Source: Acidiferrobacterales bacterium
GTDB taxonomy: Bacteria; Pseudomonadota; Gammaproteobacteria; Arenicellales; JAJDZL01
DNA: 64,000 nt
Direction of reading: 5' to 3'
Assembly (NCBI GenBank): GCA_028820695.1
Contig: JAPPIB010000055.1
Span: forward strand, 128,015 to 192,014
The stretch's first letter is position 1, and every line of letters starts with the position of its first letter. Positions 19,330-38,447 of this stretch are shown one piece after another. Both the position numbers and the translations under genes were made by a program. The notes under the pieces were generated by a model. It was not told the DNA's origin. It saw only the letters and a list, made by a program, of their open reading frames with translations, and ran no database searches.

Positions 19330-19336
19330 GACATGG

Positions 19337-19660: not shown

Positions 19661-19675
19661 AACAATACCTCTCAC

Positions 19676-21052
19676 TCACTGTGGGTCGGACAATTGGGCT
19701 GCCGCGATTGCGCGACGAGCCTTGTAAGACGGTACACGCATCTCAGCCCTGTACTTGGCGACAGTCCTGCGTGCGATATTTATTCCGCTGTCCCACATGC
19801 GTTGTGCGATCTGCTGGTCGCTCAATGGGGTCAGCTGATTTTCGGATTCAACAATCTGAAGGATTCTGTGTTTGATCGACATCGCCGATTCATCCTCGCC
19901 GACGTCACGTCTTATGCGAGCCGGAAAAAAGTGCTTCAACTCGAATGTGCCTCTTGGCGTCATTATATATTTGCCGGAACACGCCCGACTTACGGTCGAC
20001 TCATGCAGGTTGACCGCGTCCGAGATCTGCTGCAGTGTCAATGGTTTCATGGCATGCTCGCCATTGTCGAGAAAGGCGCTCTGGTGTCTGACAATCGCCT
20101 TGGCAACACGAAGAACCGTATCGTTTCGTCGACTGACGTTGTCAAGAAAATGCTGTGCTGTCACCAGGTTTCTCTCAAGGTATCTGCGATCTTTTGTTGG
20201 TATTCCATCGTCAATCATCGATCGATAGTGTTCGGAGATTTTCAGGTTTGGGATGAATTCCGAGTTGAGTAAGACAGCCCACTTGTCATCGATCTTGCGT
20301 GTGACCACATCAGGAATCACGGTCAACGCAGCCGCGCCGAAATTGATCGCCGGTGAAGGGTTCAGCGACTGTATCAGGTCAACCGCCGCCCGCACCGACG
20401 CCGCATCAACTTGCATCTGGGCGCCAATCTGTTCCAACTGTCTGTCGCCAAGCAACTCGAGGTGATCGCGCAGTATCGATTTTGCGTTCTGTCGCACAGA
20501 CCGGGGAGAATTGGCAAAGTCCAGCTGGATTGACAGGCACTCGGTCAGATTTCTCGCCGCTATACCCGGCGGGTCGAGTTGCTGTACCACCTCCAACACC
20601 CCCTCAACCTGTTGAGGCTCGACAGTCCATGGCAGGAATTCGACAATGTCCTGGATGGATTCTGTCAGGTATCCGCGTTCATCAATGCAATCAATGATTG
20701 TGTCGGCAATGGCGCGATCCGACTCTGAGAGCCCGGAGGCAAGTATCTGCTGGGCAAGGTGTTCGCGAATGGATATGGATTCCATCCGATTTGCCGCCAA
20801 CTCCAGCATCTCATCGGAGTCGAGCTCGGTGCGTTGCACGCCGTTCGATGGCAACTCTCCGTTCCGCCATGTCTCATCGCCTTCTTCCGGGACGGTGCGA
20901 TCGACTTCTTCCAAAAGTGGATTGGAGTCAACAACGTCCCTGATTTCTTCTGCCAGTTCGGAACTGGATAGTTGCAAGACCCGGACGGCAGTGCTGAATC
21001 GCGCGTTGAATGTCTGTTTTTGGCGTTGGCGTAATTCTACGGTCTGTCTCAT
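19676..21052 (-). CDS. rpoN: RNA polymerase sigma-54 factor
   Basis: 458 aa with a Gln-rich N-terminus (ELRQRQKQ), the HTH and the RpoN box ARRTVAKYR. Confidence 0.95.
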   Translation of the reverse strand: MRQTVELRQRQKQTFNARFSTAVRVLQLSSSELAEEIRDVVDSNPLLEEVDRTVPEEGDETWRNGELPSNGVQRTELDSDEMLELAANRMESISIREHLAQQILASGLSESDRAIADTIIDCIDERGYLTESIQDIVEFLPWTVEPQQVEGVLEVVQQLDPPGIAARNLTECLSIQLDFANSPRSVRQNAKSILRDHLELLGDRQLEQIGAQMQVDAASVRAAVDLIQSLNPSPAINFGAAALTVIPDVVTRKIDDKWAVLLNSEFIPNLKISEHYRSMIDDGIPTKDRRYLERNLVTAQHFLDNVSRRNDTVLRVAKAIVRHQSAFLDNGEHAMKPLTLQQISDAVNLHESTVSRACSGKYIMTPRGTFELKHFFPARIRRDVGEDESAMSIKHRILQIVESENQLTPLSDQQIAQRMWDSGINIARRTVAKYRAEMRVPSYKARRAIAAAQLSDPQ

Positions 21053-21764: not shown

Positions 21765-23963
21765 CTAGTCAGGAGAGTCCAGAATGACGCACGAGGTATA
21801 CAAATACCGGTATAGTTTGAGTGCCAGCGACTTTTCTTGCTGTTCAATCCAGCGCAACTCCTGCGTGCCTAGCAGCCATACCTTGCAAGGCAATTCGGCA
21901 ACCACTGAGTGTGCACGGGTATCCGCATCAAGCACAGGAAGAATTACATCTCCAACTCCACATTGACGAACTCTGGTTCCGTTTTGGTCAAACACTGTAG
22001 CTCTACCCGATGCAAGCAGATGAATACCCTCACCTTCCACTGCTGCTATCTTTTCATCCTGTTTGTATTCACGGGTTTCAAGCCATGCTGACAATGATTC
22101 GACTACATCTTCAAAACTAGTCATTCTGTCCAGGTATCGCTCGAGAAGTTCTTCCGATTGGGTCAGCAGGAACTCCCGTTTCAGGTCTGCGGTTTCAGCA
22201 TCGGATTCCCAGTTTTCTATGACCAGGTCTTCGCATCGCTCAAGTGCTTGATCCTTGCTCGATTCGAACCACAACTTCTCGAATGCAGAAGTCGGGACAT
22301 CCCGCATCAACCCTTTATGCAGTGCATCCGACATTGCGCAAATTACGACTTGCACACCATTTTCCGTCGAATTCTGGATAAACTGACCCAAAATGCTGAC
22401 AGCTGAGTAATCGACACCGGAAACAAGCTTCATATCAAGTATCAGGCAGGTTGGAGGCGCAGAATTATTGAGCGGCTTTCTGAGTCGTGCAACCAAGGGT
22501 CTGGCACTGCCGAAGAATAAGTATCCCCGCAGGCTGTACCCGCATATCTGATCTCCTGACTGTAAAAGAATAGTGCGTTCGGGCGGCTGTCGAACCTTCT
22601 TGCTTCGATACGTTCGACCCGTAAACTCGTCTGCAATGGGATCGACGAGACTCAGCCTCAGCGCAAAAAAGACAAGAGTCGCCAGCAAGCCTGCCACAAT
22701 ACCCTCGACAAAGCCAAAGACATTGATTACGACTACAATCAGCAATACGATCGCGTAATCGGTCGCAGGCATTTTTTTGTAGCTTTGATACAGCCCTTCG
22801 TCGAGCAGTCCTATGGCAACGAAGAATAACAGTCCGCTCAACAATGATACAGGCAAGAATTCGAGCACACCGGATCCAAAAAACAATCCTCCGCCAATGA
22901 CCAGTGCGCAAATTACGCTTGTCAATCGTGTTGATGCCCCGAAAAGCCAGCTTCGGTAGGTTGGAGGGACGACCATGTAAGTGAAGGTCGCGCCGCTGAC
23001 TCCCGAAAATATACTTGAAATTCCAGCGGCGGAAAACTCCCTGTCCCAGTTCAGTTCCCGGCCGACCAACGTCTCAAGCCCTGCAAGACTCATCACTACA
23101 CAGACAAGAGCGACAAAAATAAGTACCAGCAAATTCGGTATCTGATCTATAACCGCGTTCCAGTCTACTTTCGCCAAGTCTGTCGGAGTGATCACTGGCC
23201 ATAATACGCCTTCAACACTGTTCAGCAGCAACTTGGAGTCTCGAGCATCTTCAATCGACAACCCAAGAGCGACAAAGACCAAATGGTATGCCCCGACCAA
23301 GACAACGACACTGAACGGAAGGATCAGCGCATTTTTCCATCGTCGCATTGCGAAGAATAGTACAAGGCCGTACATCGCTCCGGGTAACCAAAGAACCAAT
23401 GAAGACGGTTCAAACAGGTGCGTATAATTTTGCGGGTCAAGCTCAACGCCCGCGATGGATACCGTGGCGATGCCGACCGCAATTCCCATTCCACCGACAA
23501 AACCTGCCGCTACCGAAAACGGAATGAATCTGACCAGCATCGAAAGACGCAGTCGTCCAATTAGCAGACACATCGTGCCGGCGACGACCGAGCCCAGAGT
23601 CAATGCCACCACAGTGGTTACAAAAAGAACCTCGCCACTCGCATCAATCGTAAGTCCCACCTGCGCCATGACAATCACCAGCGCGGGTGAAATCCCTGCT
23701 ATCGCCCCGCGAAAACTACCGGTCAAAGCGACCGAAATGCAACCGACAAATACGCCGAACAGTACCAGTCCAACACCTTGCGGCAAATATGGCTGTAACG
23801 GTCCGGAAAAAATCGCACCGGCGAAAGCAATGTGAGCAACCAGTATGCTCAGTCCCGCGGTGGAACCTGCTGAAAGCGCAGGAATGATTTTCAACGACTG
23901 GATGGTTCCAGCCGATTCGGTGTTTACACTTTTTGGCATCAGTATGCTTTGATTCAGCAGCAA
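21765..23963 (-). CDS. SulP/SLC26-family anion transporter with C-terminal STAS and cyclic-nucleotide-binding domains
   Basis: 732 aa. About 10-12 TM helices are followed by a STAS-like segment (LILDMKLVSGVDYSAVSILGQF). A cNMP-binding-like beta-roll follows (GEGIHLLASGRATVF...GVGDVILP). Confidence 0.8.
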   Translation of the reverse strand: MLLNQSILMPKSVNTESAGTIQSLKIIPALSAGSTAGLSILVAHIAFAGAIFSGPLQPYLPQGVGLVLFGVFVGCISVALTGSFRGAIAGISPALVIVMAQVGLTIDASGEVLFVTTVVALTLGSVVAGTMCLLIGRLRLSMLVRFIPFSVAAGFVGGMGIAVGIATVSIAGVELDPQNYTHLFEPSSLVLWLPGAMYGLVLFFAMRRWKNALILPFSVVVLVGAYHLVFVALGLSIEDARDSKLLLNSVEGVLWPVITPTDLAKVDWNAVIDQIPNLLVLIFVALVCVVMSLAGLETLVGRELNWDREFSAAGISSIFSGVSGATFTYMVVPPTYRSWLFGASTRLTSVICALVIGGGLFFGSGVLEFLPVSLLSGLLFFVAIGLLDEGLYQSYKKMPATDYAIVLLIVVVINVFGFVEGIVAGLLATLVFFALRLSLVDPIADEFTGRTYRSKKVRQPPERTILLQSGDQICGYSLRGYLFFGSARPLVARLRKPLNNSAPPTCLILDMKLVSGVDYSAVSILGQFIQNSTENGVQVVICAMSDALHKGLMRDVPTSAFEKLWFESSKDQALERCEDLVIENWESDAETADLKREFLLTQSEELLERYLDRMTSFEDVVESLSAWLETREYKQDEKIAAVEGEGIHLLASGRATVFDQNGTRVRQCGVGDVILPVLDADTRAHSVVAELPCKVWLLGTQELRWIEQQEKSLALKLYRYLYTSCVILDSPD

Positions 23964-24039: not shown

Positions 24040-27000
24040 TCAGCTCTCCAGAGACCAGAAATGCTGCCGCTGAAATGGGTAGCCTGGCAAAGATATACGA
24101 CGTCTCTCCTCGCTCGCAAAAAGCCCGCGAAACTCTGGCGTCAATCCCGACTCATAGGTTTTCGCGACTGCTTCAAGATAAGCGGTTTCATCGGTCGACG
24201 AGCGACTTAGAGTGGCCACTGTCACCGGGCTTTCACCGTCTGCGGCTTTCGGCCAGGTCGAGGCCACCTTCAATCCTGTCGCCGATTGCGGACCGACTTC
24301 AATAATCAAATCGATGTCCTGTTGCGCGAGAGTTTCCGAAATTCGTCCCGGTCGCACCTTGTCGTAAGTCTGTCGATACCAGTATGCCCCATCGAAAACC
24401 TCACCCGATCCCACCAGTTCGCCTGTAGCCTGGTTCACCATAGACAGTGATGGCGGGTTAGCCTTGACTCCATCGAACGCCGCTTCAAGTTCCTCCAGTG
24501 CTGTGGCATCCGGTGGGCATTCATTCTGTAATGCAGCCATCAGGGCTCCTCTGCGAGCAGCAATGCGCAAACCGTCCTCTAGAGACAGCACGCCCGCCGC
24601 TTGCGCCGCAGCAATCTGACCCGCACCTGTCCCAAACACGACGCTCGGCCGGATGCCGATGCTCGACCACAGCGCTGTGAGCGCGCATTGAAGCGAATAG
24701 ATGACCGGTTGCGCACAAGCCGGATCGTCGAGCTTCCCGAAATCGCCTAGCACCACATCCAGTAACGAAATTTGCAACTCACTTGACGCCATCGTGTGCA
24801 GATGGTTCAGCACTGCCTGAACTACCGGTTCACTCCCATAAAGATTTTCACCAATCCCGCGCCAGTGGCTGTCATCTGCCAGGTATGCGAAGGCCGGCTT
24901 GATTGTCGCAGGCGAACTATGGTTGGCATCGGATTCCGCAAGCGATGCCAGTCTGGTTCTCAGGGAATCGGCATCCCCAAATAGTATGCCAGCGCGGTGC
25001 ATCCAATGACTGCGTCCCACACCTGCCGTCCACGCCATATCAGTCAACTTGCAACCAAGGGCATCGCTGTTCAAATGGGCTGCGCTGCCATTGTCGAGCC
25101 ATGCAAGATAGCGCCCTGCAAGTTTGCGCAGCGCGTCTTCGGATTTGCCCGAAAGCGGTAATATCCGCAACGGTCTTGTCTGCAGATCGTCCACGGCAAG
25201 TTCTGTAACCGGTGCCGGCAGAGAAACGTCGATGCGATTCGCGGCACCTGCCGGGGAATTGATTCCGCTTTCTCCTTCCATCGGATACTGTGGCGCTTCA
25301 TAACCCTCGACCACAAGGTGAGCATTTGTTCCCGAGATCGCGAATGCACTCACTCCCGCTCGGGGTGGACGACTGCGGCTCGTCGGCCACTTGGTCATCT
25401 CCGATGTCACCTGCACCGGAAAATCACTCCATTGTATGTGGGGATTCGGGTCCCGGAAGTGCAGATGTTTCGGGATCACCCCGCGCTTCATCGCCAGCAG
25501 GACCTTGATCAATCCCGCGACGCCGGCCGCCGGCTCCAGATGACCGATGTTGGTCTTGACCGTGCCGAGCAGAAGCGGGCGGTCAGCCTCGCGTCCCCTG
25601 CCATACACAGCGGCAGCGGCGCGCACTTCAATCGGGTCGCCTAACTGCGATCCCGTCGCATGTGCCTCGAGGTAATCCACTTCGCAAGGAGGGATTCCAG
25701 CCTGTTGAAGCGCTTCCTCAATCACCTCTTCCTGCGCGGTTCCTTTCGGTACGGTCAGCGCGGCGCTCAACCCGTTCTGATTCACCGCTGAACCTCGCAC
25801 CAAACCCCAGATGCGATCGCCATCCGCCTCGGCATCGCTCAGCCTCTTCAGAATCACGACTCCGCAACCCTCGCCGCGAACGAAGCCGTCCGCGGCCGCA
25901 TCGAATGTCTTGCACCGCCCGCTCGATGACAACATCCCGTACTCCTTCATGAAATTCGAAACTCGAGTAGAAAGTACCGTTTGCACTCCGCCCGCCAGAG
26001 CCATGTCAATCTCACCCGCCCTGAGGCTTGCGGCAGCCTGATGCACCGCCACGAGCGATGACGAACAAGTCATGTCCAGCGGAACCGCCGGACCCATGAA
26101 CCCCAGTGTAAAAGCGACCCTTCCGATGGCCACGCTCGGTGCGGTGCCAAGAAAACTGTCATCCGCGCCTCTGCTTATGGCCAGGTCCCGGTACTCGCTG
26201 CCGCTCAAACCGATATACACGCCGGTGCGAGAGCCTGCGAGCGGCGAAGGGCATATGCCCGCGTCTTCGAGTGCCAGCCAACTCGTTTCCAGCAACAGTC
26301 TTTGGCGCGGATCCATGGTGCGTGCCTCGATAGGCCTGATGCCAAAAAAGTCCGCATCGAAAAGATTGATTCCCTCAACGAATCCTCCTCTTCGAGAGAC
26401 ACTGTCCTCGGCGGCGGGATCTCCGAAAACGCCGTGCCAGGGACCAGGGTCTTCGCGCCCATCCGTTATCGCGTCCATACCTGCCTCGAGCTGTTGCCAA
26501 AAAGCATCCAGATCAGGTGCGCCAGGGAATCGGCACGCCATGCCCACAATCGCGATTCCGTCCTTTTCCGCACCAATCTTTACTGGTTGCACCGAAACGG
26601 GCTCGTCCTGTGCTGGAGGAGCGAAAGCAGGTTCCACTTCGCCGAGCTCGCTGGCAAGATGTCTGGCAAGTGCCGCGATGTCCGGGTAATCGAAAACCAC
26701 CGTGTTCGATGCCGTGTAGGTGTCAGCGAAAGCTTTATTCAGCCGATTACGAAATTCCACGGACATGAGCGAGTCCATCCCTAGATCAAAGAAACCTACC
26801 GTAGGCTCTGGCAGCGATGACAATCGCAGTACGGCCTTTAATTCCTGCTGCAGGAACGAACCCAGCAGGTCTTCGCGCTCCGCCACCGGTACCTGCCTGA
26901 CACGAGAGATCAGATCAACCGCCAGGGCAGGTGAATCCGCACTCTCCTCAGGGTCCAAGAAGAGCAGATCCTCAAGCAGCGGCGGCCGTTCTTCGACGGC

Positions 27001-30000
27001 CTCTTGGAAAACGGTCCAATCCATGGCCATCACGACAGAATTTGTGATGTCCTGCCGTACAAGCCGTTCAAATGCCTTGATGCCCTGTTGCGGGGTGAAC
27101 CAGCGACCGCCTCGTGCGGCACGCTGTCGTTCAATCCGGTCGCGCTGTTCTGCTGCCTCACCGATTTCGGACCACGCTCCCCAGGCGATTGCCTGTCCCG
27201 GAAGTCCCAGTGCTCGGCGATATCCGGCAAGCTGATCCAGAAACGCGTTGGCCGCGGCGTGGTTCGCCTGACCCGGGTTGCCCATCACGCCGACCCGACT
27301 CGAAAACAGAATGAAAAAATCCAGATCAATATCGACAGTAGAGCGGTGCAGATGCCAAGCCCCTAGTATCTTCGGCCATAACACGATTTGGAATCGCTGC
27401 CAATTCTGGTTCGTCAGCGCACCGTCGGACAAAAGCCCTACACTATGGATCACGCCGCCCAGCGGGGGAAGTTCCTCTTTAATCCGCGCCAGCATTGAAT
27501 TTACCTGGCCGGCATCCGATACATCCGCGAGTTCCACCCTGACTCTGAACCCTCGTTCGCGTAGCGAATCGATTGCCCTATCAACCTCCGGGTCTGGAGA
27601 ACGTCGTCCATTCAGCACGATCGTTCCGGCTCCGCGTTCGGCGAGCCAATCGGCGACTGCACATCCGATGCCGCCAAGCCCTCCGGTGACAAGATACGTC
27701 CTGTCCTGCCGCAAGCGGCCGTTTGCCAGCGGCGGCACCGTCAGGACAATCTTGCCGGTATGGCGGGCCGCCCGCATGAATCGCAATGCCGTTCCGGCCT
27801 CCGCCAGCGGCCATCTGCTATGAACAATCGGTCGCACTTGTCCTGCCGCAAGCTGTTTCATGACGTCGCGAAGAACCCTGCCAACCCTGGCCGGTTCGGT
27901 CTTCTTCATAACATCGAGCTCGAGGATGGCATAGGCTACGTCAGGACGAACCTGTGCCATCTCATCCTCGCTGAGTATGTCCCGCCTTGCCAGCTCGACG
28001 AACCGTCCGCCATTCGCCAGGCAGGATAGGCTCGCGTCTATGAAGCCTTCCCCTGTCAGACTGTTTAGCACCACATCCACACCGACGCCGCCGGTGGCAT
28101 TGAGAATTTCTTCTCCAAATGTGGTTTGGCGACTGTCAAAAATGTTCTCCACCCCGAGCGAACGAAGGTATGACTGCTTGGGCGCGCTCGCTGTAGCAAA
28201 GACTTCCGCCCCCGCGGCCTGCGCCAGCTGGATCGCCGCCAGACCGACGCCGCCGGCACCCGCGTGAATCAACACCTTGTCTCCCTTGTTCAGCCCGGAA
28301 AACTCGTAAGACAGGGCGGCCGAGACGAATGCGCTTGGCACCGTGGCGAGATCCGATGCGGAAAATCCGGTCGGGGCCGGCGCGACCAGTTCCTCTCTCG
28401 TAATCATTTCAAACGCAAACGCGCCGAATCCCAGTCCGGTTACGTGATCGCCAATACGAACAGTTGACACTTCGGCACCGAGCTCAATTACACGGCCGTA
28501 CATCTCCCTGCCCAGATCACCCTCTTCGATAAAGCCCAGCGAGCGAAACACATCCCAAAAGTTAAGGCCGATCGCCTCAACCGCAATACATACCTCCTTC
28601 GGCTTCAGGTTGCGAGGTTGCAAGGGCTTGATGCACGGTCTTTCAAAAACGCCGCCCGGATCCGGTGCCAGCACCCACGCCGCATCATCCGGCAGGGAGA
28701 GTCGCTCGGCCCCGGCGTCTCCCCGGACCAGGCGTGCAACGTGACGACGTCCCGATCGGTATGCGATGTGGTTTTCCGAGTCGGGGTACAAAAGTTCATT
28801 GACCAAATCGGGTTCCGGCGATATCGGTGCAGGATCCAGGTCAATCATCCTCGGTTGCAGGTCCGCCGCTTCAAGTATCACGGCCTTGCCGAACCCCCAA
28901 AGAACGCTGCCGGCGAGCTCCCCGCCCTGTTCCCGTTCCAATACCTGCGCCCCGCTGGTGATAAACCACACACCTAGTTGCGGTTTCGCATCAACATCCA
29001 TCATTCCCTGGACCATCGCTAACGCACTGGCACCGATCCGTCTCACGTCCTCAGCCATTTCCTCGTGCGATGCATCCGACCCGCGGCCATTGCAGGCCAT
29101 CAGGTGTACGGCACCGTGAAAATCCATATCCGATGGAAGACTTCGCATGAGCGAACACCAGGAATCTCGATGTTCCATGTCCAGGGAGACGTCAACCACC
29201 CCGGCTCCGGATATCTCCCATGACTTGTCATTCGACGGTCCGTTCTCAACCAGCATCACTACCTGATTGCGAGCAGCCAGCCGGGTTGCCAGCTCGCTTG
29301 CCATCTCACAGCGATCCCCCGCGAGAATCCAGACCCCCGGCGCTTCCATTACTTCGGCTGCACTTTGTGCGACGATCACCCCCTTGTCCGGAAACTCGGT
29401 TGGGTCCGACTCATTCACTCCCAGAACTTCCACTTCACTGAAACCGACATCAGCGAGCGCGCGGCGCCATATTGACGGACTTGCCAGGGCATGGTGGGGA
29501 CGGTAGCTGTCAGCGAACCGCCACCATCCGTCCAATTGCCCGAAAGTGAGATCCATCCAACCCTGACCGCTGAGATTTTCGAGTGCAACCAGCTGACCCG
29601 ACGGCGCGAGAAGCAAAAGGCAATGTGTCAGTGTTTCTTGAAGATCGCGAGTTGCGTGCAAGACGTTCGACGCAATCAGCAAATCATAGGAGTTGACGGC
29701 AAAGCCCTGCACCAGCGGATCTTTCTCAATATCCAAAGGACGGTATTCGATGGCGCCTCCACCATCACCGAAGCGTGATTCTGCTTGTGCAAAGAATCCT
29801 GCCGAGATGTCCGTGTACATGTAATCGAACTGTCCATCCGGCAGTTCCGGCAAGATGGCAGCGGTCGCCGAACCTGTCCCCGCGCCGACTTCAATTATCC
29901 GAAGACGCTTTCCCTCGGGCCGGTCGGCCACGAGGGTGCGAATTGTCTCTTTCAATATCCGATTGGCTGCCCGCGCCACAGGTGCTTTCAGATACAGATC

Positions 30001-33000
30001 TCCAGGTGTCGGATCTCCGCTGCTGAACAGCAGCGTCAAAGGATCCTCTTTGGCGCGCAGTACATCAGCCAAGGCACCGCCACATCGTCTGAACAGGCCA
30101 ATTTCGTTGGTGCCGTGGCGATAACGCGAGACCATCGTGGAAACAAATTCCTCGATGTCCTCCGGCAATTCATCCGGCAACGGGTCATCCGGACCAACCC
30201 GGACGACGAATCCGTCGCCTGCCTGTTCCAATATTCCGGATTTTGCCAGCAGCTCAAGTATTCTGCGAAACAGGCGTTTATGGATAGCTTCAACCCCTAA
30301 GTGCTGGCGCAGATTCTCAGCGTTCAGCGTTGCGCCCGTTTCGCGCTTCCATCCGAGTTTCTCCAAGGTCGCAAGTGCATGACGACGCGACCACTGTTCC
30401 AAGTCGTTCAACAGAGCGCTTCTGTCGTCGCGCGAAACGCCTTCTTCAGCGAGATATTCGGCAAGCAGACCGGAACGGCGCGCCACGTCAGCCGGTGACG
30501 GAAGGAAGTCGGCAGGCACCATTCCCTGGGCCAGAACGACTTCTCGCCAGACGATCTCGTAAAGAAGATCATCGACTCCTTCGACTGCCGACAGCAACGC
30601 AGCACGCGTTGCGCGTTTTACGGTGTAGCCCTCCAATGCGCCGATCAGGTGCCCGGCCGAATCGTAGATGCGTATTTCACCACTCATTGCCTCCGCCGGA
30701 AGCTCGGCTTGCGTTTCAGCTTCCTGGACGGATTGCGTCATCTGTACATGGCACAAGACCGTTCGCGGCAGTCGCTCCCTGATCCACAGTCGCTTCCAGC
30801 CAAAAGGCATATAAGTCGTTTCATCTTCAACTCCACCCATAGTCCGCGCCGCAGCCACGACCTGGAAGCAGCCGTCCAGCACGAGCGGATGAACATCAAG
30901 TTTTTGCTGGTCGTAAACGCTGGGTAATGTCACCTCGCCCAGTGCTTCTCCCGGCCGGCACCATATGCCGCCGAGTGTTCGGAACGACGAGTCGAGATCA
31001 ATCCCTGTGGCGGAACGGGCGCGGTAGTAAGCCGCCGCATCCACCGGTTCGAAGCCGGATTTCAGACTGTCGGGATCGATTCGGTCTTCGTTTTGCACAT
31101 CCGGTGCACCACGCAAGACTCGGCACTCCACGTGATTCGTCCATCCCTCCTCGCTGCCTTTGCTGAATATCCTGACACGTCGGGACTTCGTTTCATCTTC
31201 GGAGTCAACCACGAGCTGAAGCCTGCGGACTGTCTCATCCACACTCTTCGCAGGATCTTCCGGCTGGAAGATCAGTGCATTCAGCAGTTGCATATCTTCA
31301 ACAACCACCGCGCGGTCCCCTTCGTCAAGGGCCGCAGATATCGACATGGCGCCGTAGAGCGCCCCTGGCGCAACGACCCGGCCGAACACTCGATGATCGC
31401 TCATCCACTGCGGGTCCGACGCAGAGATCTCCGTCTCGAATGTAACCTCCCCGCTAGCCGACTCGTAGCGATCGCCCAGCAGTGGATGCCCGGCACCGCG
31501 ACGCCGTTCCCGGGTCGAATCAAGCCAGTGGCGTTCGCGCTGGAACGGATAGTTGGGGATTGCGATTCGCCGGCGTTGCTCTCCAGCGTATAGCCCTTCA
31601 AAGTTTACCCGGAGCCCCGCCCGGTACGCTTGCGCAACCGCCTCGAAGAAACCATCGCTGCTACCGGACTGTTGTGCATCTTCCTTCGGTGGATGCATGC
31701 TTGCGAGCACTGTCGGCAACTGCGCATCGTCGCAATCCGGCCAAGCTGAGAGCGTCATCGCGCCCAACAACGGGCGCGGCCCTATTTCCACGATCACACC
31801 GACCCCGGCTTGCGCCAGCGATGCAGTTCCAGCAGCGAATGCCACCGGTTCGCGGGCATGTCGCCTCCAGTACGCTCCCTCAAGCAGCTGGCCGGTCTCA
31901 ACCGGCCGTCCGGTAAGATTGCTGACGATGGCGAGGGCGGCGGGTTTGATCGATATATCATCCAGCGACGTTTCCAGTGCATCCAATGCCGGGTCCAGCA
32001 AGGCACTGTGGAACGCCCGCTTCGTATTCAGCCGCCTTGTGCGAACACTTTCGACTTCGAAACGCTTGCATATGCTTTCAATATCCTCGACCGGGCCGCT
32101 CACCACCTGATGGCTGCCATTGTCTGCTGACACGCTGATGCCAGCGCGACTGGAAGATGAATTGAACTGTTCGACGATTGACGCAACCGTGTCGTGTGGA
32201 GCAAATACCGCGGCCATCGCACCGGGTTGGGTATTCGAAAGGATGGTGCCCCGCCTCTGTGCGAACCGCATGCCATCTTCCAAGCTGTAAACGCCCGCTG
32301 CCTGTGCGGCCGCCAGTTCTCCGACACTGTGTCCCACAACCACGTCGGGACGAATCCCGACACTGTTCCAAAGTGCTGTCAAAGCGCACTCGAGTGCGTA
32401 AAGCGCCGGCTGCTCCCACGCTGTGTCGTCCAGTCTGCCTTGTCCTGCGCCGTCCCTCGCGAACATTACGTCCAGCAAAGAAGCGCCTCCCTGTTCGCGA
32501 AATACTTGCTCACAGCGGTCGAACACTGCCCGCGCCACCGGTTCGCTTTCATAAAGCATCTGCCCCATGCCGGTCCATTGGCTGCCTTGCCCGGTATAGA
32601 CGAATGCCACCTTGATCTGAGAATGCTGTGGGATTTCGTCATCCTGTTTGACCAATAACCGAAGCTGCTCCCGCAGCGACCCGACGTCCTCGAACACAAT
32701 GCCCGTTCGGTGACTGAAATGACTTCGTCCGACACTGGCTGTCCATGCCATGTCGGACAGCAAAGCCCCTGCTGCAGTGTCTTGTGCTCCAATCGCCTTT
32801 GCCTGCGCATCGAGCCATGAGAGGTACCGTTCGGCGAGAGCTCGTGCACCTGCCGACTTGCCCGAAAGCGGAAGCAAGCGGCTGGCACGCTGCTTAAGCT
32901 CTTCATTCGGCATCGAAATATTCTTTGCTGCAGTCGACGAAGTTACCGCGATAGGTTTTGCAGATCCTGCCGTCAGATCTTGTTCGTAAGGTGCCTTGTC

Positions 33001-34395
33001 AGGTGCACAATATTCTTCCACGACAATATGGGCGTTCGTGCCGGAAATTCCGAAAGAATTCACTCCTGCAAGGCGCGGACGTCTGTCGTGTTGCGGCAGG
33101 TCCATCATCGAAGTGACGACCTGTACAGGCAGAAGATTCCAATCCAGACTCGAATTCGGATTGTTGAAGTGCAGGTGCTTGGGAATCGTACCGCGTTGCA
33201 TGACGAGCACTGCCTTGATCAGGCCTGCAATTCCGGCGGCCGACTCCAGGTGACCGACGTTGGTTTTCACAGAACCGACCAGAAGCGGTCGGTCGGCCAT
33301 GCGATTGTTTCCATAGACTGACGCTACCGCATTGATCTCGATTGGATCGCCCACCGACGTTCCGGTACCATGCGCCTCGAGATAATCGACTTGCGACGCG
33401 GTGATTCCTGCCTGCGAGAGCGCCTCTTCCATGACTTGCTCAAGCGCTGGTGTGTGCGGAACCGTGAGCCCGCTGCTGGCACCGCCGTGATTGACCGCTG
33501 AACCTCGGATGACGCCCCAAATTCGATCACCGTCGCGTTCCGCGTCGCTCAGCCGCTTGAGGACAACGGCACCGCAGCCTTCGCCTCGCACATAGCCGTT
33601 CGCGGAATCGTCGAACGCCTTGCACTGGCCATCCGGGGAAAGCATCATCGCATCTGCGCGCAGTTCGAATATGCGGCCACTCAAGATTGCCTGCACACCA
33701 CCTGCGATCGCCAGATCCGCCTTCCCCTGCTGAAGGTCTGAAACCGCATCGTGGACCGAAACCAGGGACGATGCGCAAGCGGCGTCGACCGCTTTCGAAG
33801 GCCCCCTGAGTCCCAGTACGAAAGAGACCCGACCACTGGTTCCGTTCAGGTTGGTGCCGCTGAGGGCATAAAGGCAGGCGGCAGCCTCGGCAGGCTTGTT
33901 CGATCCCACCACCAGCATCCTGTATTCGTCGTTGCTGATCCCTGTATATACGCCGGTGCGGCTGCCCATCAGCTGATCAGGGTCTATTCCTGCGTCCTCA
34001 AGAGCGTGCCAGCTGGTCTCGAGCATCATTCGCTGTTGCGGGTCGAGAAAGTCGGCCTCGACAGGCGAAATTCGAAAGAAACCAGCGTCAAAACCATCGA
34101 TCCCATCAACGAAGGCACAGTAACGGCAGGCGCTGTCCAATTCCTCAAGATCCGGAAATAGTTCATCCACGCGCTGGTTTCCGCTACCCGGGACGATTTC
34201 GCAGACCGAGTTTCCGCCAGATTCAAGAAGTTCCCAGAATTCAGAAATACTCGACGCACCTGGAAACCGGCACGCCATTCCTATCACTGCGACTGGTTGG
34301 ACAGGTTGTAAATTTCTTGCGTGATCCTTCACAGAATAGCTGGAAAATTTGAAGCTATTGTTTATGTGTACCCATGTTGACAATTCAGGTATCAA
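24040..34395 (-). CDS. type I polyketide synthase, 3451 aa: KS-AT-DH-cMT-(psiKR)-ER-KR-ACP-KS-degenerate AT
   Basis: KS1 has DAACASS (C207), EAHGTG and NVGHLE. AT1 has GQGSQW, GHSVG (S690) and RAFHS, which indicates malonyl specificity. DH has HRVFGRVVAP and LDGCFQ. The MT domain has IEVGAGTG. ER has LIHAGAGGVG. KR has TGGLGGIG, LWPK, FSS and GQANHAAAN. ACP has LGMDSL (S2542). KS2 has MTCSSS (C2777), EAHATG and NIGHLE. The AT-like tail has GTGAG in place of GHSxG. A TTG start is assumed, so the exact start is uncertain. Confidence 0.95.
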   Translation of the reverse strand: MIPELSTWVHINNSFKFSSYSVKDHARNLQPVQPVAVIGMACRFPGASSISEFWELLESGGNSVCEIVPGSGNQRVDELFPDLEELDSACRYCAFVDGIDGFDAGFFRISPVEADFLDPQQRMMLETSWHALEDAGIDPDQLMGSRTGVYTGISNDEYRMLVVGSNKPAEAAACLYALSGTNLNGTSGRVSFVLGLRGPSKAVDAACASSLVSVHDAVSDLQQGKADLAIAGGVQAILSGRIFELRADAMMLSPDGQCKAFDDSANGYVRGEGCGAVVLKRLSDAERDGDRIWGVIRGSAVNHGGASSGLTVPHTPALEQVMEEALSQAGITASQVDYLEAHGTGTSVGDPIEINAVASVYGNNRMADRPLLVGSVKTNVGHLESAAGIAGLIKAVLVMQRGTIPKHLHFNNPNSSLDWNLLPVQVVTSMMDLPQHDRRPRLAGVNSFGISGTNAHIVVEEYCAPDKAPYEQDLTAGSAKPIAVTSSTAAKNISMPNEELKQRASRLLPLSGKSAGARALAERYLSWLDAQAKAIGAQDTAAGALLSDMAWTASVGRSHFSHRTGIVFEDVGSLREQLRLLVKQDDEIPQHSQIKVAFVYTGQGSQWTGMGQMLYESEPVARAVFDRCEQVFREQGGASLLDVMFARDGAGQGRLDDTAWEQPALYALECALTALWNSVGIRPDVVVGHSVGELAAAQAAGVYSLEDGMRFAQRRGTILSNTQPGAMAAVFAPHDTVASIVEQFNSSSSRAGISVSADNGSHQVVSGPVEDIESICKRFEVESVRTRRLNTKRAFHSALLDPALDALETSLDDISIKPAALAIVSNLTGRPVETGQLLEGAYWRRHAREPVAFAAGTASLAQAGVGVIVEIGPRPLLGAMTLSAWPDCDDAQLPTVLASMHPPKEDAQQSGSSDGFFEAVAQAYRAGLRVNFEGLYAGEQRRRIAIPNYPFQRERHWLDSTRERRRGAGHPLLGDRYESASGEVTFETEISASDPQWMSDHRVFGRVVAPGALYGAMSISAALDEGDRAVVVEDMQLLNALIFQPEDPAKSVDETVRRLQLVVDSEDETKSRRVRIFSKGSEEGWTNHVECRVLRGAPDVQNEDRIDPDSLKSGFEPVDAAAYYRARSATGIDLDSSFRTLGGIWCRPGEALGEVTLPSVYDQQKLDVHPLVLDGCFQVVAAARTMGGVEDETTYMPFGWKRLWIRERLPRTVLCHVQMTQSVQEAETQAELPAEAMSGEIRIYDSAGHLIGALEGYTVKRATRAALLSAVEGVDDLLYEIVWREVVLAQGMVPADFLPSPADVARRSGLLAEYLAEEGVSRDDRSALLNDLEQWSRRHALATLEKLGWKRETGATLNAENLRQHLGVEAIHKRLFRRILELLAKSGILEQAGDGFVVRVGPDDPLPDELPEDIEEFVSTMVSRYRHGTNEIGLFRRCGGALADVLRAKEDPLTLLFSSGDPTPGDLYLKAPVARAANRILKETIRTLVADRPEGKRLRIIEVGAGTGSATAAILPELPDGQFDYMYTDISAGFFAQAESRFGDGGGAIEYRPLDIEKDPLVQGFAVNSYDLLIASNVLHATRDLQETLTHCLLLLAPSGQLVALENLSGQGWMDLTFGQLDGWWRFADSYRPHHALASPSIWRRALADVGFSEVEVLGVNESDPTEFPDKGVIVAQSAAEVMEAPGVWILAGDRCEMASELATRLAARNQVVMLVENGPSNDKSWEISGAGVVDVSLDMEHRDSWCSLMRSLPSDMDFHGAVHLMACNGRGSDASHEEMAEDVRRIGASALAMVQGMMDVDAKPQLGVWFITSGAQVLEREQGGELAGSVLWGFGKAVILEAADLQPRMIDLDPAPISPEPDLVNELLYPDSENHIAYRSGRRHVARLVRGDAGAERLSLPDDAAWVLAPDPGGVFERPCIKPLQPRNLKPKEVCIAVEAIGLNFWDVFRSLGFIEEGDLGREMYGRVIELGAEVSTVRIGDHVTGLGFGAFAFEMITREELVAPAPTGFSASDLATVPSAFVSAALSYEFSGLNKGDKVLIHAGAGGVGLAAIQLAQAAGAEVFATASAPKQSYLRSLGVENIFDSRQTTFGEEILNATGGVGVDVVLNSLTGEGFIDASLSCLANGGRFVELARRDILSEDEMAQVRPDVAYAILELDVMKKTEPARVGRVLRDVMKQLAAGQVRPIVHSRWPLAEAGTALRFMRAARHTGKIVLTVPPLANGRLRQDRTYLVTGGLGGIGCAVADWLAERGAGTIVLNGRRSPDPEVDRAIDSLRERGFRVRVELADVSDAGQVNSMLARIKEELPPLGGVIHSVGLLSDGALTNQNWQRFQIVLWPKILGAWHLHRSTVDIDLDFFILFSSRVGVMGNPGQANHAAANAFLDQLAGYRRALGLPGQAIAWGAWSEIGEAAEQRDRIERQRAARGGRWFTPQQGIKAFERLVRQDITNSVVMAMDWTVFQEAVEERPPLLEDLLFLDPEESADSPALAVDLISRVRQVPVAEREDLLGSFLQQELKAVLRLSSLPEPTVGFFDLGMDSLMSVEFRNRLNKAFADTYTASNTVVFDYPDIAALARHLASELGEVEPAFAPPAQDEPVSVQPVKIGAEKDGIAIVGMACRFPGAPDLDAFWQQLEAGMDAITDGREDPGPWHGVFGDPAAEDSVSRRGGFVEGINLFDADFFGIRPIEARTMDPRQRLLLETSWLALEDAGICPSPLAGSRTGVYIGLSGSEYRDLAISRGADDSFLGTAPSVAIGRVAFTLGFMGPAVPLDMTCSSSLVAVHQAAASLRAGEIDMALAGGVQTVLSTRVSNFMKEYGMLSSSGRCKTFDAAADGFVRGEGCGVVILKRLSDAEADGDRIWGLVRGSAVNQNGLSAALTVPKGTAQEEVIEEALQQAGIPPCEVDYLEAHATGSQLGDPIEVRAAAAVYGRGREADRPLLLGTVKTNIGHLEPAAGVAGLIKVLLAMKRGVIPKHLHFRDPNPHIQWSDFPVQVTSEMTKWPTSRSRPPRAGVSAFAISGTNAHLVVEGYEAPQYPMEGESGINSPAGAANRIDVSLPAPVTELAVDDLQTRPLRILPLSGKSEDALRKLAGRYLAWLDNGSAAHLNSDALGCKLTDMAWTAGVGRSHWMHRAGILFGDADSLRTRLASLAESDANHSSPATIKPAFAYLADDSHWRGIGENLYGSEPVVQAVLNHLHTMASSELQISLLDVVLGDFGKLDDPACAQPVIYSLQCALTALWSSIGIRPSVVFGTGAGQIAAAQAAGVLSLEDGLRIAARRGALMAALQNECPPDATALEELEAAFDGVKANPPSLSMVNQATGELVGSGEVFDGAYWYRQTYDKVRPGRISETLAQQDIDLIIEVGPQSATGLKVASTWPKAADGESPVTVATLSRSSTDETAYLEAVAKTYESGLTPEFRGLFASEERRRISLPGYPFQRQHFWSLES

Positions 34396-34633: not shown

Positions 34634-35569
34634 CTACTGACCAATGTGGACTTTACGATTGTCCAATAGATTATGCTGTTCGAGAAATTCCCTTATTACA
34701 GCAACACATTCCTTGGGCTGTTCGAGTTGAAGCAAATGGGTTGTGTCGGGGAGGAAATCGTAATCCAAGCTGTGGATTTGGCTCAAATCAAATGTCGGAA
34801 GATATGAGTAGGGGAGAACCGGGTCGGCACCAACAACTTTGGTCGGACAGTCAATCTCTTCCAAGTCAACCCAGACTGTGTACATCCTGGCGTAGTTGAT
34901 GATCTGTGCTTCATAAGTACGAGGGCAGCGCAAACTGTAGCCGTCTCCCCCGTCATTTTTTTTTAGCATTGTTCTTGCTGCAAGATCGAGTACACCAGGA
35001 ACGGTGCGGTGATACACAGGAAGCCAGCTAAGCAAATCGACAAACTCATCCAAGGACTTGAAAGTATCTGTTCGACGCAGGGCGGCTTCTGTCGACCGTC
35101 TGGTTGCTATATCGTATTCTTCAGGGTAGTCATTAGGTTTGCACAATGGCGGATCAAACAAAATGCGCGCGGCGAAATCACAGTTCCCGGTGGAGGAGAC
35201 AAGTGAGGCCAAAGCGGAAACAGAATGGAATATTCCGATTTTCGGCTTCTTGCCGTACCTGACATCAATTTCATCGAGTATACGGTCGTGATCATCAACA
35301 AGTGCTGGAACAATGTGATCTGCCTGTGCGCCGACGGCGTTCCAGCCATGATTTCTAAGGTCAAAAACAAATAGCTCAAAGTCTTGGGCTAAAAGCGACC
35401 AAAACGGATAATACAAGTCGATGGCAAGACCGTTGCCATGACTCAATACAAGCCTCGGTCCGTTTGGATTCCCATGTTGCCGCAGATGGATGACAGTACC
35501 GTCGTCCATGCGAATTCTGTGCACGGAAAGCGGCTCAGGCACTTCCCATACCCTATCTTTACATGCCAT
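34634..35569 (-). CDS. alpha/beta-fold hydrolase (candidate thioesterase/release enzyme of the PKS cluster)
   Basis: 311 aa with the oxyanion motif LSHGNG, a nucleophile-elbow variant GIFHSVSA and a C-terminal His in DTTHLLQLEQP. Confidence 0.75.
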   Translation of the reverse strand: MACKDRVWEVPEPLSVHRIRMDDGTVIHLRQHGNPNGPRLVLSHGNGLAIDLYYPFWSLLAQDFELFVFDLRNHGWNAVGAQADHIVPALVDDHDRILDEIDVRYGKKPKIGIFHSVSALASLVSSTGNCDFAARILFDPPLCKPNDYPEEYDIATRRSTEAALRRTDTFKSLDEFVDLLSWLPVYHRTVPGVLDLAARTMLKKNDGGDGYSLRCPRTYEAQIINYARMYTVWVDLEEIDCPTKVVGADPVLPYSYLPTFDLSQIHSLDYDFLPDTTHLLQLEQPKECVAVIREFLEQHNLLDNRKVHIGQ

Positions 35570-35574
35570 GGAAA

Positions 35575-36306
35575 TTACTCATCCGCGATGCGAGCGATAG
35601 CTGGAACCAACTCGTGTGCAATTGCGGCAGCGAAATCAGTGTTGCCCATATCTTCAAGCTTCCAGAAAATATCCGGAAGGTGCGGGAACCTGAATGTGGC
35701 GGACCGGGCGCCATGTCGCATGCTTGGCGGGACTTGGAATCTGGACGGATCAAGAGAAAATCCAGTGCCAAGGGCTTTGATCAGTGCCTCCTTCAGTGTC
35801 CACAGGGTATAGAAAAAGTGAGGCTTTTCTCGAACCTGTCTGGAAGACAACTCGGTTTGCTCTTGCTCACCAAACACTATCTTGCCTATTCCATCAAAGT
35901 CGTTGCTGTCGATGCGCTCCTCGACATCCACTCCAACTCGTCCTTCGGAAGCAAACGCGATTAACCCATGCATGCCACTGTGACTTAGGTTGAAACTCGT
36001 TTGAACCGCCACACCGTCGATCAATGCGAACGGCTTCCCGTATTCGAAATTGTCAAAAGAAAGCAGTCTGTTGTCACAGTCGAGCCTATGACAAAGATTC
36101 ATGCGCAACGCTGCCCGACAAAGCGCAAACTCGCGCTGAGGACGAGAAAACTTATACCGGTGCCAGCGCTCCCGCTCAGACTTGTCAAGCTGCGAGAAGG
36201 CACGCTCCTCACGCGATTTATTCGGGGTCAGATCAACATGGACAACGGACACATCTGCAACTTCACAAAAACATCTGAACCACAAATCCTCATCTTCGTT
36301 AAGCAT
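35575..36306 (-). CDS. Sfp-type 4'-phosphopantetheinyl transferase
   Basis: 243 aa with GVDVEE and FYTLWTLKEALIKALG, the W/FxxKEA motif. Confidence 0.85.
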   Translation of the reverse strand: MLNEDEDLWFRCFCEVADVSVVHVDLTPNKSREERAFSQLDKSERERWHRYKFSRPQREFALCRAALRMNLCHRLDCDNRLLSFDNFEYGKPFALIDGVAVQTSFNLSHSGMHGLIAFASEGRVGVDVEERIDSNDFDGIGKIVFGEQEQTELSSRQVREKPHFFYTLWTLKEALIKALGTGFSLDPSRFQVPPSMRHGARSATFRFPHLPDIFWKLEDMGNTDFAAAIAHELVPAIARIADE

Positions 36307-36360
36307 GATGCTCTTGCATTCAAAAATGCGTTGTTTGCCGTGCCAGTCTACCCTTAATGA

Positions 36361-36396
36361 AAATCGGCCCTCTGATACAACAACAGGGCCGATTTA
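36361..36396 (-). terminator. hairpin plus U-tract downstream of the stand-alone ACP gene
   Basis: In the minus orientation: aaatcggccct-gttgttgtatcag-agggccgattt followed by tcatt. This is an 11-bp stem with a GC core, about 30 nt after the ACP stop. Confidence 0.45.
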
Positions 36397-36424
36397 AATT
36401 ATCCAGAATTGATCGAAGTCTGTC

Positions 36425-36646
36425 TCATCCGGAAAGATGATTGATCAGATCTCGTAAACTGCTGAAACCGGAAGCGACATCGCTCGTTATTGTTACGTCG
36501 AACTCCTCATTAATCACTTTGAGAAAATTCACAGCATCCATCGAATTCACCCCTAGTTCAGAAAAATTGGAATCCAGCAAGGCTCGATCGGATATGCCCA
36601 AGTGCAGCTCAATTAAATCTCCTACGCGTTGCTCAACGCTTCCCAT
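36425..36646 (-). CDS. stand-alone acyl carrier protein
   Basis: 73 aa with a four-helix ACP pattern. The attachment motif LGVNSMDAV is an NS variant of the usual DS. Confidence 0.8.
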   Translation of the reverse strand: MGSVEQRVGDLIELHLGISDRALLDSNFSELGVNSMDAVNFLKVINEEFDVTITSDVASGFSSLRDLINHLSG

Positions 36647-37112: not shown

Positions 37113-37862
37113 CTAAATCCGGAAACTATGACCCAGATAGAATTTCTTTGCGGATTCATCCTCCATAATCTGCTGGGCAGTTCCGGAGGCAACGACGACG
37201 CCGTCGTTCATGATGTGGGCGCGGTGGCAGACCGTCAGCGTTTCGCGTACATTGTGATCGGTGATGAGAAATCCGACATTGCGCCTGCACAGCGCCTGAA
37301 GCAGTTCGGTCAGTTCGATCACCGCGATGGGGTCAATACCGGCAAACGGTTCGTCCAGCAAGATGAATCTCGGCTCCAGTGCAAGTGATCTCGCCATTTC
37401 GACCCGCCGTCGTTCTCCGCCGGACAGTGTTGCGGCTTTCTGGTCGCGCAGGTGTTCGATCTGGAACTCGCTCAGCAAGTCATACAGACATTCCTGGCGC
37501 TGATAATGCGTGACGGACCTGTTGGTTTCCAGCATTGCGGTAATATTCTGTTCGACAGTGAGATTACGGAAGATCGACGAATCCTGGGGTAGATAACCGA
37601 CACCCTTTCGGGCCCGGGCGTACATCGGCAACCCCGAGATATCATCCCCATCGAGCAGGACGGATCCACTGTCGCACTTTTCCAACCCGATTACGGCATT
37701 GAAACAGGTTGTCTTCCCCGCGCCATTGGGTCCCAGCAGACCGATGATTTCACCACTATCGACGTGCAGACTGACTGAATCGACAACCTTCCGGGACCGG
37801 AACGATTTGGAAATATTGACAACTTCCAGTCGGCTGGCTACGGAGTTCATGGTTGACAGCAT
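37113..37862 (-). CDS. lptB: LPS export ABC transporter ATP-binding protein LptB
   Basis: 249 aa with GPNGAGKTT, LSGGERRRVEMAR and LLDEPFAGIDP. It is followed upstream by lptA and lptC. Confidence 0.93.
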   Translation of the reverse strand: MLSTMNSVASRLEVVNISKSFRSRKVVDSVSLHVDSGEIIGLLGPNGAGKTTCFNAVIGLEKCDSGSVLLDGDDISGLPMYARARKGVGYLPQDSSIFRNLTVEQNITAMLETNRSVTHYQRQECLYDLLSEFQIEHLRDQKAATLSGGERRRVEMARSLALEPRFILLDEPFAGIDPIAVIELTELLQALCRRNVGFLITDHNVRETLTVCHRAHIMNDGVVVASGTAQQIMEDESAKKFYLGHSFRI

Positions 37863-37897
37863 TTTGTCAGCTCAACTCACGTCCAGACGGTTCGACT

Positions 37898-38410: not shown

Positions 38411-38447
38411 TTTCCATCCATTCGATCCGCATTTCACGATTTCAGGC

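Follow-up and report, generated by a model that had tools for sequence, protein, structure and literature searches.

This study concerns a type I polyketide synthase (PKS) gene and its neighbours in a 64,000-nucleotide stretch of an Acidiferrobacterales genome (contig JAPPIB010000055.1, positions 128,015 to 192,014), referred to below as the window. The PKS gene occupies positions 24040-34395 of the minus strand, where an open frame runs without interruption for 3451 codons, starting at TTG 34395. The public gene call on the same contig places the start 21 codons later, at GTG 34332, giving a protein of 3430 residues; inspection of ribosome-binding sites gave no convincing site by which to choose between the two starts. 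Genes for a transporter, an α/β hydrolase, a phosphopantetheinyl transferase (PPTase) and a discrete acyl carrier protein (ACP) lie on the same strand beside it, and together these genes are treated here as a cassette.

A Pfam search of the PKS translation identifies nine domains. The first ketosynthase (KS1; 33016-34299, residues 33-460) has a Pfam match over residues 33-410 (E 3.6e-155), the catalytic residues Cys207, His342 and His382, and the motifs DPQQR and HGTGT. It is followed by an acyltransferase (AT1; 31678-32604, residues 598-906; Pfam 2e-85) with the motif GHS690VGE and a malonyl-type RAFHS at 793-797, and by a dehydratase (DH; 30595-31488, residues 970-1267; PKS_DH_N and PS-DH) with His1001 and Asp1174. 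The C-methyltransferase (cMT) region spans approximately residues 1291-1720; its class I methyltransferase core (29431-29961, residues 1479-1655) matches Methyltransf_12 (2.7e-15) and has the S-adenosylmethionine (SAM) motif IEVGAGTG at 1501-1508. The enoylreductase (ER; 27742-28605, residues 1931-2218) is of the medium-chain dehydrogenase/reductase type (ADH_N/ADH_zinc_N) with the NADPH motif LIHAGAGGVG at 2042-2051. The ketoreductase (KR; 27166-27699, residues 2233-2410; Pfam 3e-60) contains TGGLGGIG at 2237-2244 together with Lys2342, Ser2366, His2379 and Asn2383, and the integrated ACP (26656-26853, residues 2515-2580; PP-binding) has Ser2542 within GMDSLM. A second Pfam ketosynthase stretch (KS2; 25294-26559, approximately residues 2613-3034) has Cys2777, His2912 and His2952, and the second KS plus KS-AT linker families together span approximately residues 2613-3150. 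The remainder (24043-25164, approximately residues 3078-3451) consists of a KS-AT linker, a degenerate second acyltransferase (AT2) and a post-AT linker, GYPFQRQHFWSLES (residues 3438-3451), which runs up to the stop codon. Pfam finds no thioesterase (TE), reductase (R) or condensation (C) domain in cis in the PKS.

The original prediction, made from the sequence and its reading frames, had proposed this minus-strand gene and the order KS-AT-DH-cMT-ER-KR-ACP followed by a second KS. The reading frame is real, as judged from the open reading frame list and the translation, each of these domains is backed by Pfam (including the cMT, ER and KR assignments on which it had staked its reading), and its motif positions (C207, S690, RAFHS, H1001, D1174, the cMT, ER and KR motifs, and S2542) are all exact, as is the C-terminal sequence that it quoted. 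Its pairing of a malonyl-type AT with SAM-dependent C-methylation is borne out by the xAFHS motif and the intact SAM motif. The AT-like tail that it described at the C-terminus is present and is more precisely a degenerate AT, with GHSxG changed to GTGAG and the small subdomain absent.

The cassette sits between lptC-lptA-lptB (37113-38909) and rpoN-hpf-ptsN-rapZ (17856-21052). In typical Gammaproteobacteria these two groups are contiguous, and the cassette has the look of a block inserted at a conserved locus. Elsewhere the window contains mlaFE, miaB-phoH-corC-lnt and β-oxidation genes; this context, with lptCAB and rpoN-hpf-ptsN-rapZ, upholds the earlier description of a gammaproteobacterial-type genome. 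Flanking direct repeats, tRNA genes and integrase genes were not found at the insertion borders, and the 64-kb window holds no other PKS or non-ribosomal peptide synthetase (NRPS) gene. The GC content of the PKS is 58-59%, and its GC at third codon positions (GC3) is 0.61, against 0.58-0.65 for the core genes of the host. The higher total GC of the PKS is due to codon positions 1 and 2, that is, to amino-acid composition; a recent high-GC island was considered and rejected, since GC3 matches that of the host genes. The accessory genes have GC3 values below those of the PKS and the host core genes (ACP 0.46, hydrolase 0.49, transporter 0.52, PPTase 0.55), and these differences raise the possibility that the cassette was put together from parts of separate origin.

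Relatives were sought by aligning the methyltransferase region against one genome per GTDB species, and at least 583 were confirmed in the species-representative genomes. The best 80 of these are 61-76% identical over the methyltransferase region; all are metagenome-assembled genomes (MAGs) and they come from more than 10 phyla. They include Paracoccaceae, Nitrospinaceae, Acidobacteriota (Terriglobia/Bryobacterales), Rhodothermales, Gemmatimonadota (Candidatus Palauibacter irciniicola among them), Chloroflexota/SAR202, Latescibacterota, Spirochaetia, Binatia, Arenicellales, Pseudomonadales and Candidatus Porisulfidus. When each domain of the window PKS was searched with tblastn, the nine-domain order was common to essentially all sufficiently long loci of the best 80, and the stand-alone PKS layout is conserved in about 80 loci. 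Full-length identity to the multi-phylum relatives is 54-71%; over the KS amplicon region, identity to MAG proteins of several phyla rises to 80-89%. In a neighbour-joining tree of 54 full-length proteins the phyla are intermixed: the nearest sequences come from a Nitrospinaceae MAG (70.6%), a Paracoccaceae MAG (68.9%) and an Arenicellales MAG (67.1%), and the other gammaproteobacterial copies are 57-62% identical to the window PKS.

The contig is labelled ROBB21-1_SAMN13943214_METAG-scaffold_83, and the same contig has also been assembled from run SRR10996926. Many of the best 80 relatives bear APA_, RHO_, COS_ or IRC_ bin names, and others are named sponge symbionts. Aplysina, Rhopaloeides, Coscinoderma, Ircinia and other sponges were sampled in the demosponge study of Robbins et al. 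2021, and we infer that the bin prefixes correspond to initials of sponge species in that study. The names of the contig and of its relatives are consistent with a sponge metagenome as the source and a sponge as the host.

These features recall the Sup PKSs (sponge symbiont ubiquitous PKSs), a resemblance that the original prediction had pointed to and that is borne out by source, architecture, relatives and accessory genes (PMC4245539, PMC3908369, PMC9426513). Sup PKSs are small, monomodular, sponge-specific and hugely diverse, with 123 variants in one specimen, and it has been proposed, not shown, that they make mid-chain-branched fatty acids (PMC4245539, PMC3908369). They dominate surveys of high-microbial-abundance sponges, and one such study assigned to them more than 99% of its KS amplicons (PMC4245539). 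MAGs of Chloroflexota, Spirochaetota, Proteobacteria and Acidobacteriota have yielded SUP gene-cluster families (Loureiro et al. 2022; PMC9426513). Taken together, these lines of evidence identify the gene cluster, with little doubt, as a Sup-family cassette. No protein named 'Sup' occurs among the matches to pieces of the PKS, all of them fragmentary gene calls, or among the cluster members of those matches. The type SupA sequences are said to be the clones pAPKS18 and pSW1H8; the sup clusters were reportedly described by Fieseler et al. in 2007, Hochmuth and Piel in 2009 and Hochmuth et al. in 2010, the family being known, by this account, since 2007.

The gene could instead be an ordinary cis-AT PKS of cyanobacterial or myxobacterial type in a free-living gammaproteobacterium, unrelated to Sup. 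Its best solved homologues are indeed domains of the curacin pathway, and the sole NCBIfam model passed is the generic 'type I polyketide synthase' one. Set against this, the source contig and all close relatives belong to metagenome or MAG sets with sponge-study names, proteins from many phyla are 54-71% identical over their full length and share the unusual arrangement of nine domains, and the published SUP gene-cluster families come from similar MAGs. A non-Sup origin is accordingly judged very improbable.

Conservation of the catalytic sites was counted in an alignment of the 54 full-length relatives. Cys207, His342 and His382 of KS1, Ser690 of AT1, His1001 and Asp1174 of DH, and Ser2542 of the integrated ACP are present in 54/54; the xAFHS motif of AT1 is conserved and GMDSLM is invariant. 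The cMT motif EVGAGTG and the residues His1580 and Glu1606 are likewise found in 54/54, except for Val1503 (44/54). Positions of the ER motif LIHAGAGGVG are conserved in 48-54 of the 54 and those of the KR motif TGGLGGIG in 51-54, with Lys2342, Ser2366 and Asn2383 of KR in all. In KS2, Cys2777 and His2952 are invariant (54/54) and His2912 is retained in 50/54. Nei-Gojobori estimates of dN/dS, the ratio of non-synonymous to synonymous substitution rates, were made on the 12 closest protein pairs. They are lowest for KS1 (0.03-0.11) and KR (0.06-0.11), followed by KS2 (0.06-0.20), cMT (0.06-0.21), ER (0.08-0.21), DH (0.11-0.26) and AT1 (0.09-0.29). KS2 is under strong purifying selection, and the low ratios argue that the reducing loop and KS2 are functional.

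AT2 presents a different picture. Its nucleophile position holds Gly in 48/54 and Ser in 2/54, so that Ser is absent from 52/54. In the window copy GQGSQ has also become ADDSH, and the small subdomain of about 65 residues that would contain the specificity (AFHS) motif is missing. The AT2 core has been deleted in several relatives (L018, L041, L050, L066, L069, L071 and L072), which keep KS2, the KS-AT linker and the post-AT linker, and one (L064) has lost nearly everything between KS2 and a terminal RRRxxLPGYPFQRRRHW. From these sequences AT2 is predicted to be dead throughout the family. Its dN/dS (0.20-0.52 for the core; 0.24-0.52 for the KS2-AT linker) indicates selection that has been relaxed without being lifted altogether, as would suit a structural remnant. 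The stepwise loss of AT2, in which the post-AT linker RRRISLPGYPFQRRxYW is kept, resembles a possible route by which AT-less KS modules originate. The original prediction had counted a single module. One full reducing module is indeed present, but it is accompanied by a conserved second, minimal one, as seen in the Cys-His-His residues and low dN/dS of KS2 and in the discrete ACP.

The KR has an unusual active site. His2379 (codon 27259-27261) occupies the position of the catalytic Tyr in the K-S-Y-N tetrad of short-chain dehydrogenases/reductases, and does so in 54/54; the window reads GQANHAAAN where MAS (mycocerosic acid synthase) reads GQGAYAAAN and AmphB reads GQPGYAAAN. Despite this replacement, few domains of the PKS are as constrained as the KR. 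To place it more widely, the KR domain was searched against 1.84 billion representative proteins, and the best 150 proteins, a sample biased towards relatives of the query, yielded 489 KR domains. Their catalytic column holds Tyr in 452, His in 25 and other residues in 12. Modules with a cMT have a His-type KR in 15/17, modules without one have a Tyr-type KR in 451/472, and 16 of the 25 His-type modules also contain a DH. The idea that the His-for-Tyr KR is specific to Sup was rejected, the same type being found in ordinary multimodular cis-AT PKSs. Given the bias of the sample, the association of His-type KRs with cMT may be due to a cMT-KR unit inherited from a shared ancestor and not to functional coupling.

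The replacement raises the prospect that the KR is dead and that DH and ER go unused. The enzyme would then make α-methyl β-keto intermediates which, after extension by KS2, could give a methylated pyrone by cyclisation or ketones by decarboxylation, with no need of a thioesterase. The occurrence of His2379 in every relative and the lack of a TE in cis would fit such a scheme. It is hard to reconcile with a KR whose dN/dS is 0.06-0.11 and whose NADPH motif, Lys, Ser and Asn are invariant, or with the invariant His/Asp of DH and the invariant ER motif, in domains whose non-synonymous rate lies about 2-3-fold below that of the dead AT2. The His-type KRs found together with a DH in 16/25 other PKS modules speak against it as well, and from this co-occurrence the His-type KRs almost certainly reduce. 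A dead KR is thus regarded as highly improbable.

The three genes immediately upstream of the PKS, in the same orientation, encode the hydrolase (34634-35569, 311 residues; Pfam Abhydrolase_6), which is family-specific and a candidate trans-acting release enzyme; the PPTase of Sfp/HetI type (35575-36306, 243 residues; Pfam ACPS, with an NCBIfam HetI-like match below cut-off); and the discrete ACP (36425-36646, 73 residues with the motif LGVNSMD). The ACP was found as an open reading frame, is annotated as PP-binding in the public gene call and gives a weak NCBIfam acyl_carrier match. All three had been noted in the original prediction as neighbours of the PKS, and are confirmed as such. On the other side, 76 nt downstream of the PKS, a Pfam-assigned SulP-STAS transporter of 732 residues is encoded on the minus strand (21765-23963); its C-terminus has a weak match to a cNMP-binding domain, under the Pfam cut-off. 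An inverted repeat between the ACP and PPTase genes (36355-36401; 17-nt arms, 13-nt loop) is a possible attenuator or RNA-processing site. Promoter and terminator scans gave background levels, and an Rfam search returned nothing relevant.

Partner genes were counted in 60 loci that contain a complete PKS with at least 3 kb on either side. A discrete ACP is adjacent in 51/60, an α/β hydrolase in 50/60, an NCS2 (Xan_ur_permease) transporter of about 583 residues in 33/60 (for example L044:4435-6183) and a PPTase in 28/60. A PhyH-like neighbour that emerged from clustering was rejected as a partner because it is inconsistent across loci. The commonest gene order is PKS-ACP-PPTase-hydrolase, with the ACP gene usually starting 25-220 nt past the PKS stop; in the window, by contrast, the ACP-PPTase-hydrolase group is upstream of the PKS and not downstream. 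A discrete ACP gene placed immediately after KS2-AT has the appearance of a split second module. SulP genes that are about 40% identical adjoin the PKS in L057, L063 and L076, which are Pseudomonadales or other gammaproteobacterial MAGs. SulP and NCS2 proteins share a fold, and no sequence similarity was detected between the SulP protein and the NCS2 permease. A SulP/NCS2-type transporter seems to be an optional component of the cassette. The four recurrent accessory genes fit a five-gene supA-E cluster, in which SupE is described in the literature as a 'permease'.

This recurrence bears on the suggestion that the PKS is a stray piece of a larger collinear line, a split module or a decaying relic rather than a self-contained system. 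The protein does end exactly at the post-AT linker (YPFQRQHFW), a typical boundary within a module. Yet the 64-kb window is free of any further PKS or NRPS gene, dozens of loci across more than 10 phyla repeat this C-terminus with ACP, PPTase and hydrolase after it, and the 3451-codon frame is intact and under purifying selection. A fragment or relic is judged very improbable.

The hydrolase has 2405 homologues, and the best 120 of these are 57-70% identical. Ser116 (in FHSVS), Asp249 and His278 are invariant and are placed as an α/β-hydrolase triad by the alignment and an AlphaFold model of moderate quality (predicted local confidence score, pLDDT, 66). Foldseek matches to this model include esterases, lactonases, a membrane phospholipase A and the curacin (CurM) TE, at structural-similarity (TM) scores of 0.5-0.6, and sequence searches of the PDB gave weak matches only. 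With weak PDB matches, a moderate model and a generic fold, no specific activity can be assigned; the model is compatible with a thioesterase acting in trans but is not specific for one. A hydrolase cluster at 90% identity mixes MAG proteins labelled Acidobacteriota and Gammaproteobacteria, which points to very recent cross-phylum transfer or binning errors. The original prediction had stated that the PKS lacks a release domain. None is present in cis, but with a hydrolase adjacent in 50/60 complete loci 'release in trans' is the better description.

We propose that the Sfp-type PPTase would activate both the integrated and the discrete ACP. As the PKS has no loading domain, KS1 would be primed in trans with an acyl starter. 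AT1 would load malonyl, KS1 would condense it with the starter and cMT would methylate the α-carbon with SAM. The His-type KR, DH and ER would then fully reduce the unit to a 2-methyl-branched saturated acyl-ACP. The chain would pass to KS2 for one further decarboxylative condensation with malonyl held on the discrete ACP, which, AT2 being dead, would be loaded by AT1 or by FabD of the cell. The resulting 4-methyl-3-oxoacyl-ACP could either enter the type II fatty-acid enzymes, leading to mid-chain-branched fatty acids, or be released by the Ser-Asp-His hydrolase. The adjacent SulP/NCS2-type permease may be functionally linked to the pathway.

Taken as a whole, a Sup cassette in which module 1 makes a methyl-branched acyl chain, KS2 extends it and release occurs in trans is the best explanation and is considered probable. 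Its parts differ in strength. A reduced chain with a SAM-derived methyl branch is the probable product, as predicted from the domain content. That KS2 and the discrete ACP together form a split second module is put forward more tentatively, at somewhat short of even chances. More doubtful, though possible, is that the cassette is a portable branch-inserting device, in which a CurJ-like His-KR module would add a single methyl-branched C2 unit, an AT-less KS2 would pass the chain to a discrete ACP resembling those of fatty-acid synthase (FAS) and the FAS II of the host would finish a mid-chain-branched lipid.

Several points weigh against this interpretation. Membership of the Sup family has been established from source, architecture, relatives and accessory genes, not from direct alignment with SupA, and the literature reached holds no demonstrated product or role for any Sup PKS. 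The KR is without its canonical catalytic Tyr, and the window has a SulP transporter in place of the family-typical NCS2 permease. The discrete ACP is tied to KS2, rather than to priming of KS1, by gene order alone, and module 1 may, as far as its sequence tells, work either in a single pass or iteratively. Bacteria also make mid-chain methyl fatty acids by SAM methylation of unsaturated lipids, and the existence of this route makes the link between Sup and mid-chain-branched fatty acids a conjecture.

An iterative synthase of MAS or highly reducing PKS (HR-PKS) type has to be weighed in this connection. Module 1 would go through several cycles on a single ACP, giving a chain with multiple methyl groups or with programmed methyl branching, KS2 would have a different chain-length preference or serve the last extension only, and the hydrolase would free the acid. 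The domain order is that of MAS plus a cMT, which equals that of the fungal HR-PKSs; there is no loading domain, only a single full reducing loop, and two active KS domains stand beside one active AT. The literature, moreover, calls the Sup family 'monomodular'. However, KS-AT and cMT are nearest to the collinear cyanobacterial modules CurL and CurJ, above MAS and LovB, and in most loci the discrete ACP gene follows KS2-AT directly, as in a split collinear module. The mid-chain-branched fatty acids of sponges that are cited for Sup carry a single methyl, which also weighs against repeated cycling. Iteration is considered unlikely, at about one chance in four.

Some further genes of the window may be mentioned for their setting. 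A β-oxidation-like set (40860-50646), 4-14 kb from the cassette, comprises a 3-hydroxyacyl-CoA dehydrogenase, a thiolase, an acyl-CoA synthetase, an α/β hydrolase, an enoyl-CoA hydratase and a 500-residue open reading frame that lacks a Pfam match; it could supply or degrade acyl starters. A 208-residue protein encoded at 50829-51455 on the minus strand matches the GPP34 (Golgi phosphoprotein 3) family (E 2e-34), and a tetratricopeptide repeat (TPR) protein is encoded nearby at 52614-54014. Both are eukaryote-like domain types often noted in sponge symbionts.

The value of the locus lies in its being a complete gammaproteobacterial copy of an abundant, functionally uncharacterised family with mechanistic oddities of its own. 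ACP, PPTase, hydrolase, PKS and transporter all lie within 21.8-36.6 kb of the window, and this compactness, with the gammaproteobacterial background, makes the copy a practical choice for heterologous expression. If the branch-inserting reading is true, an operon-like block of about 15 kb in an E. coli-like locus would offer a tractable entry to what Sup PKSs make. The dead or deleted AT2 beside a conserved KS2, the split-module discrete ACP and the His-for-Tyr KR each give rise to testable mechanistic hypotheses.

Comparison with known systems places the PKS by descent. Against solved structures, KS1-AT1 matches CurL best (1e-206), followed by MAS (2e-139), Pks13 (approximately 1e-127), trans-AT KSs (approximately 1e-114) and LovB (4e-106), with animal FAS scoring below LovB. 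The closest solved homologue of cMT is the CurJ cMT (5thy, E 2e-64); DH and ER match CurK, CurF and MAS, KR matches MAS and AmphB, and KS2 matches 7zma and CurL. Among NCBIfam models, Pks2 (1469 bits, cut-off 2400), PfaA (554, cut-off 1010) and Pks13 fell below cut-off. The earlier label 'MAS/HR-PKS-like' therefore holds for domain order but not for sequence, whose closest relatives are cyanobacterial cis-AT modules. By sequence descent the PKS is assigned to the cyanobacterial or myxobacterial type of cis-AT module and resembles MAS and HR-PKSs in domain logic only.

MAS shares the KS-AT-DH-ER-KR-ACP order, the lack of a cis TE, a KR/ER match (3e-45) and the expectation of a fully reduced methyl-branched product. 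MAS derives its branches from methylmalonyl-CoA and has neither a cMT nor a second KS, whereas the window PKS has a malonyl-type AT (AFHS), a cMT and a KR with His for the canonical Tyr of MAS. AT specificity, the cMT and the closest sequence relatives all place it outside the MAS-like enzymes. Fungal HR-PKSs such as LovB have the same KS-AT-DH-cMT-ER-KR-ACP order and a SAM-derived methyl, but the matches to LovB are distant (KS-AT 4e-106, cMT 1e-35), similarity to LovB and PsoA lies far under that to bacterial modules, and the window PKS differs in its bacterial context, its extra KS2-AT(dead) and its discrete ACP. It does not belong with them. A synthase of polyunsaturated fatty acid (PUFA) or HglE type is contradicted by the PfaA score below cut-off, the single ACP and the PKS-type DH. 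Nor is this a trans-AT PKS, since AT1 is intact in 54/54 and only the terminal AT is vestigial.

The curacin modules CurJ and CurL share a cMT between DH and ER/KR and a malonyl-specific AT combined with SAM methylation. They are part of a long collinear multi-protein line ending in a sulfotransferase-TE, whereas the window PKS is a stand-alone full module followed by KS-AT(dead), with a discrete ACP and a hydrolase; with no other PKS gene found in the 64-kb window, it is not part of a collinear assembly line. The swf clusters (SwfA/B/C) represent a second widespread PKS/FAS of sponge symbionts, also monomodular, symbiont-specific and spread across phyla, and a published swf fosmid has a SupE-like permease and STAS-domain proteins nearby. 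SwfA, however, lacks a cMT (its order is KS-AT-DH-ER-KR-ACP), has a reductase/sulfotransferase and a radical SAM enzyme after it, and shows KS motifs (no DPQQ; HATGT) that differ from DPQQR and HGTGT of KS1.

The sup clusters are the closest counterpart. With them the cassette shares a PKS of about one module, a full reducing loop with a cMT, a sponge-metagenome source, diversity across phyla and a transporter beside the PKS. The window copy differs in its location in a gammaproteobacterial lptB-rpoN locus and in a SulP-STAS transporter that replaces the NCS2-type permease. It is a new member of a known family rather than a new family, and the label of a MAS/HR-PKS-like novelty should be replaced by that description.

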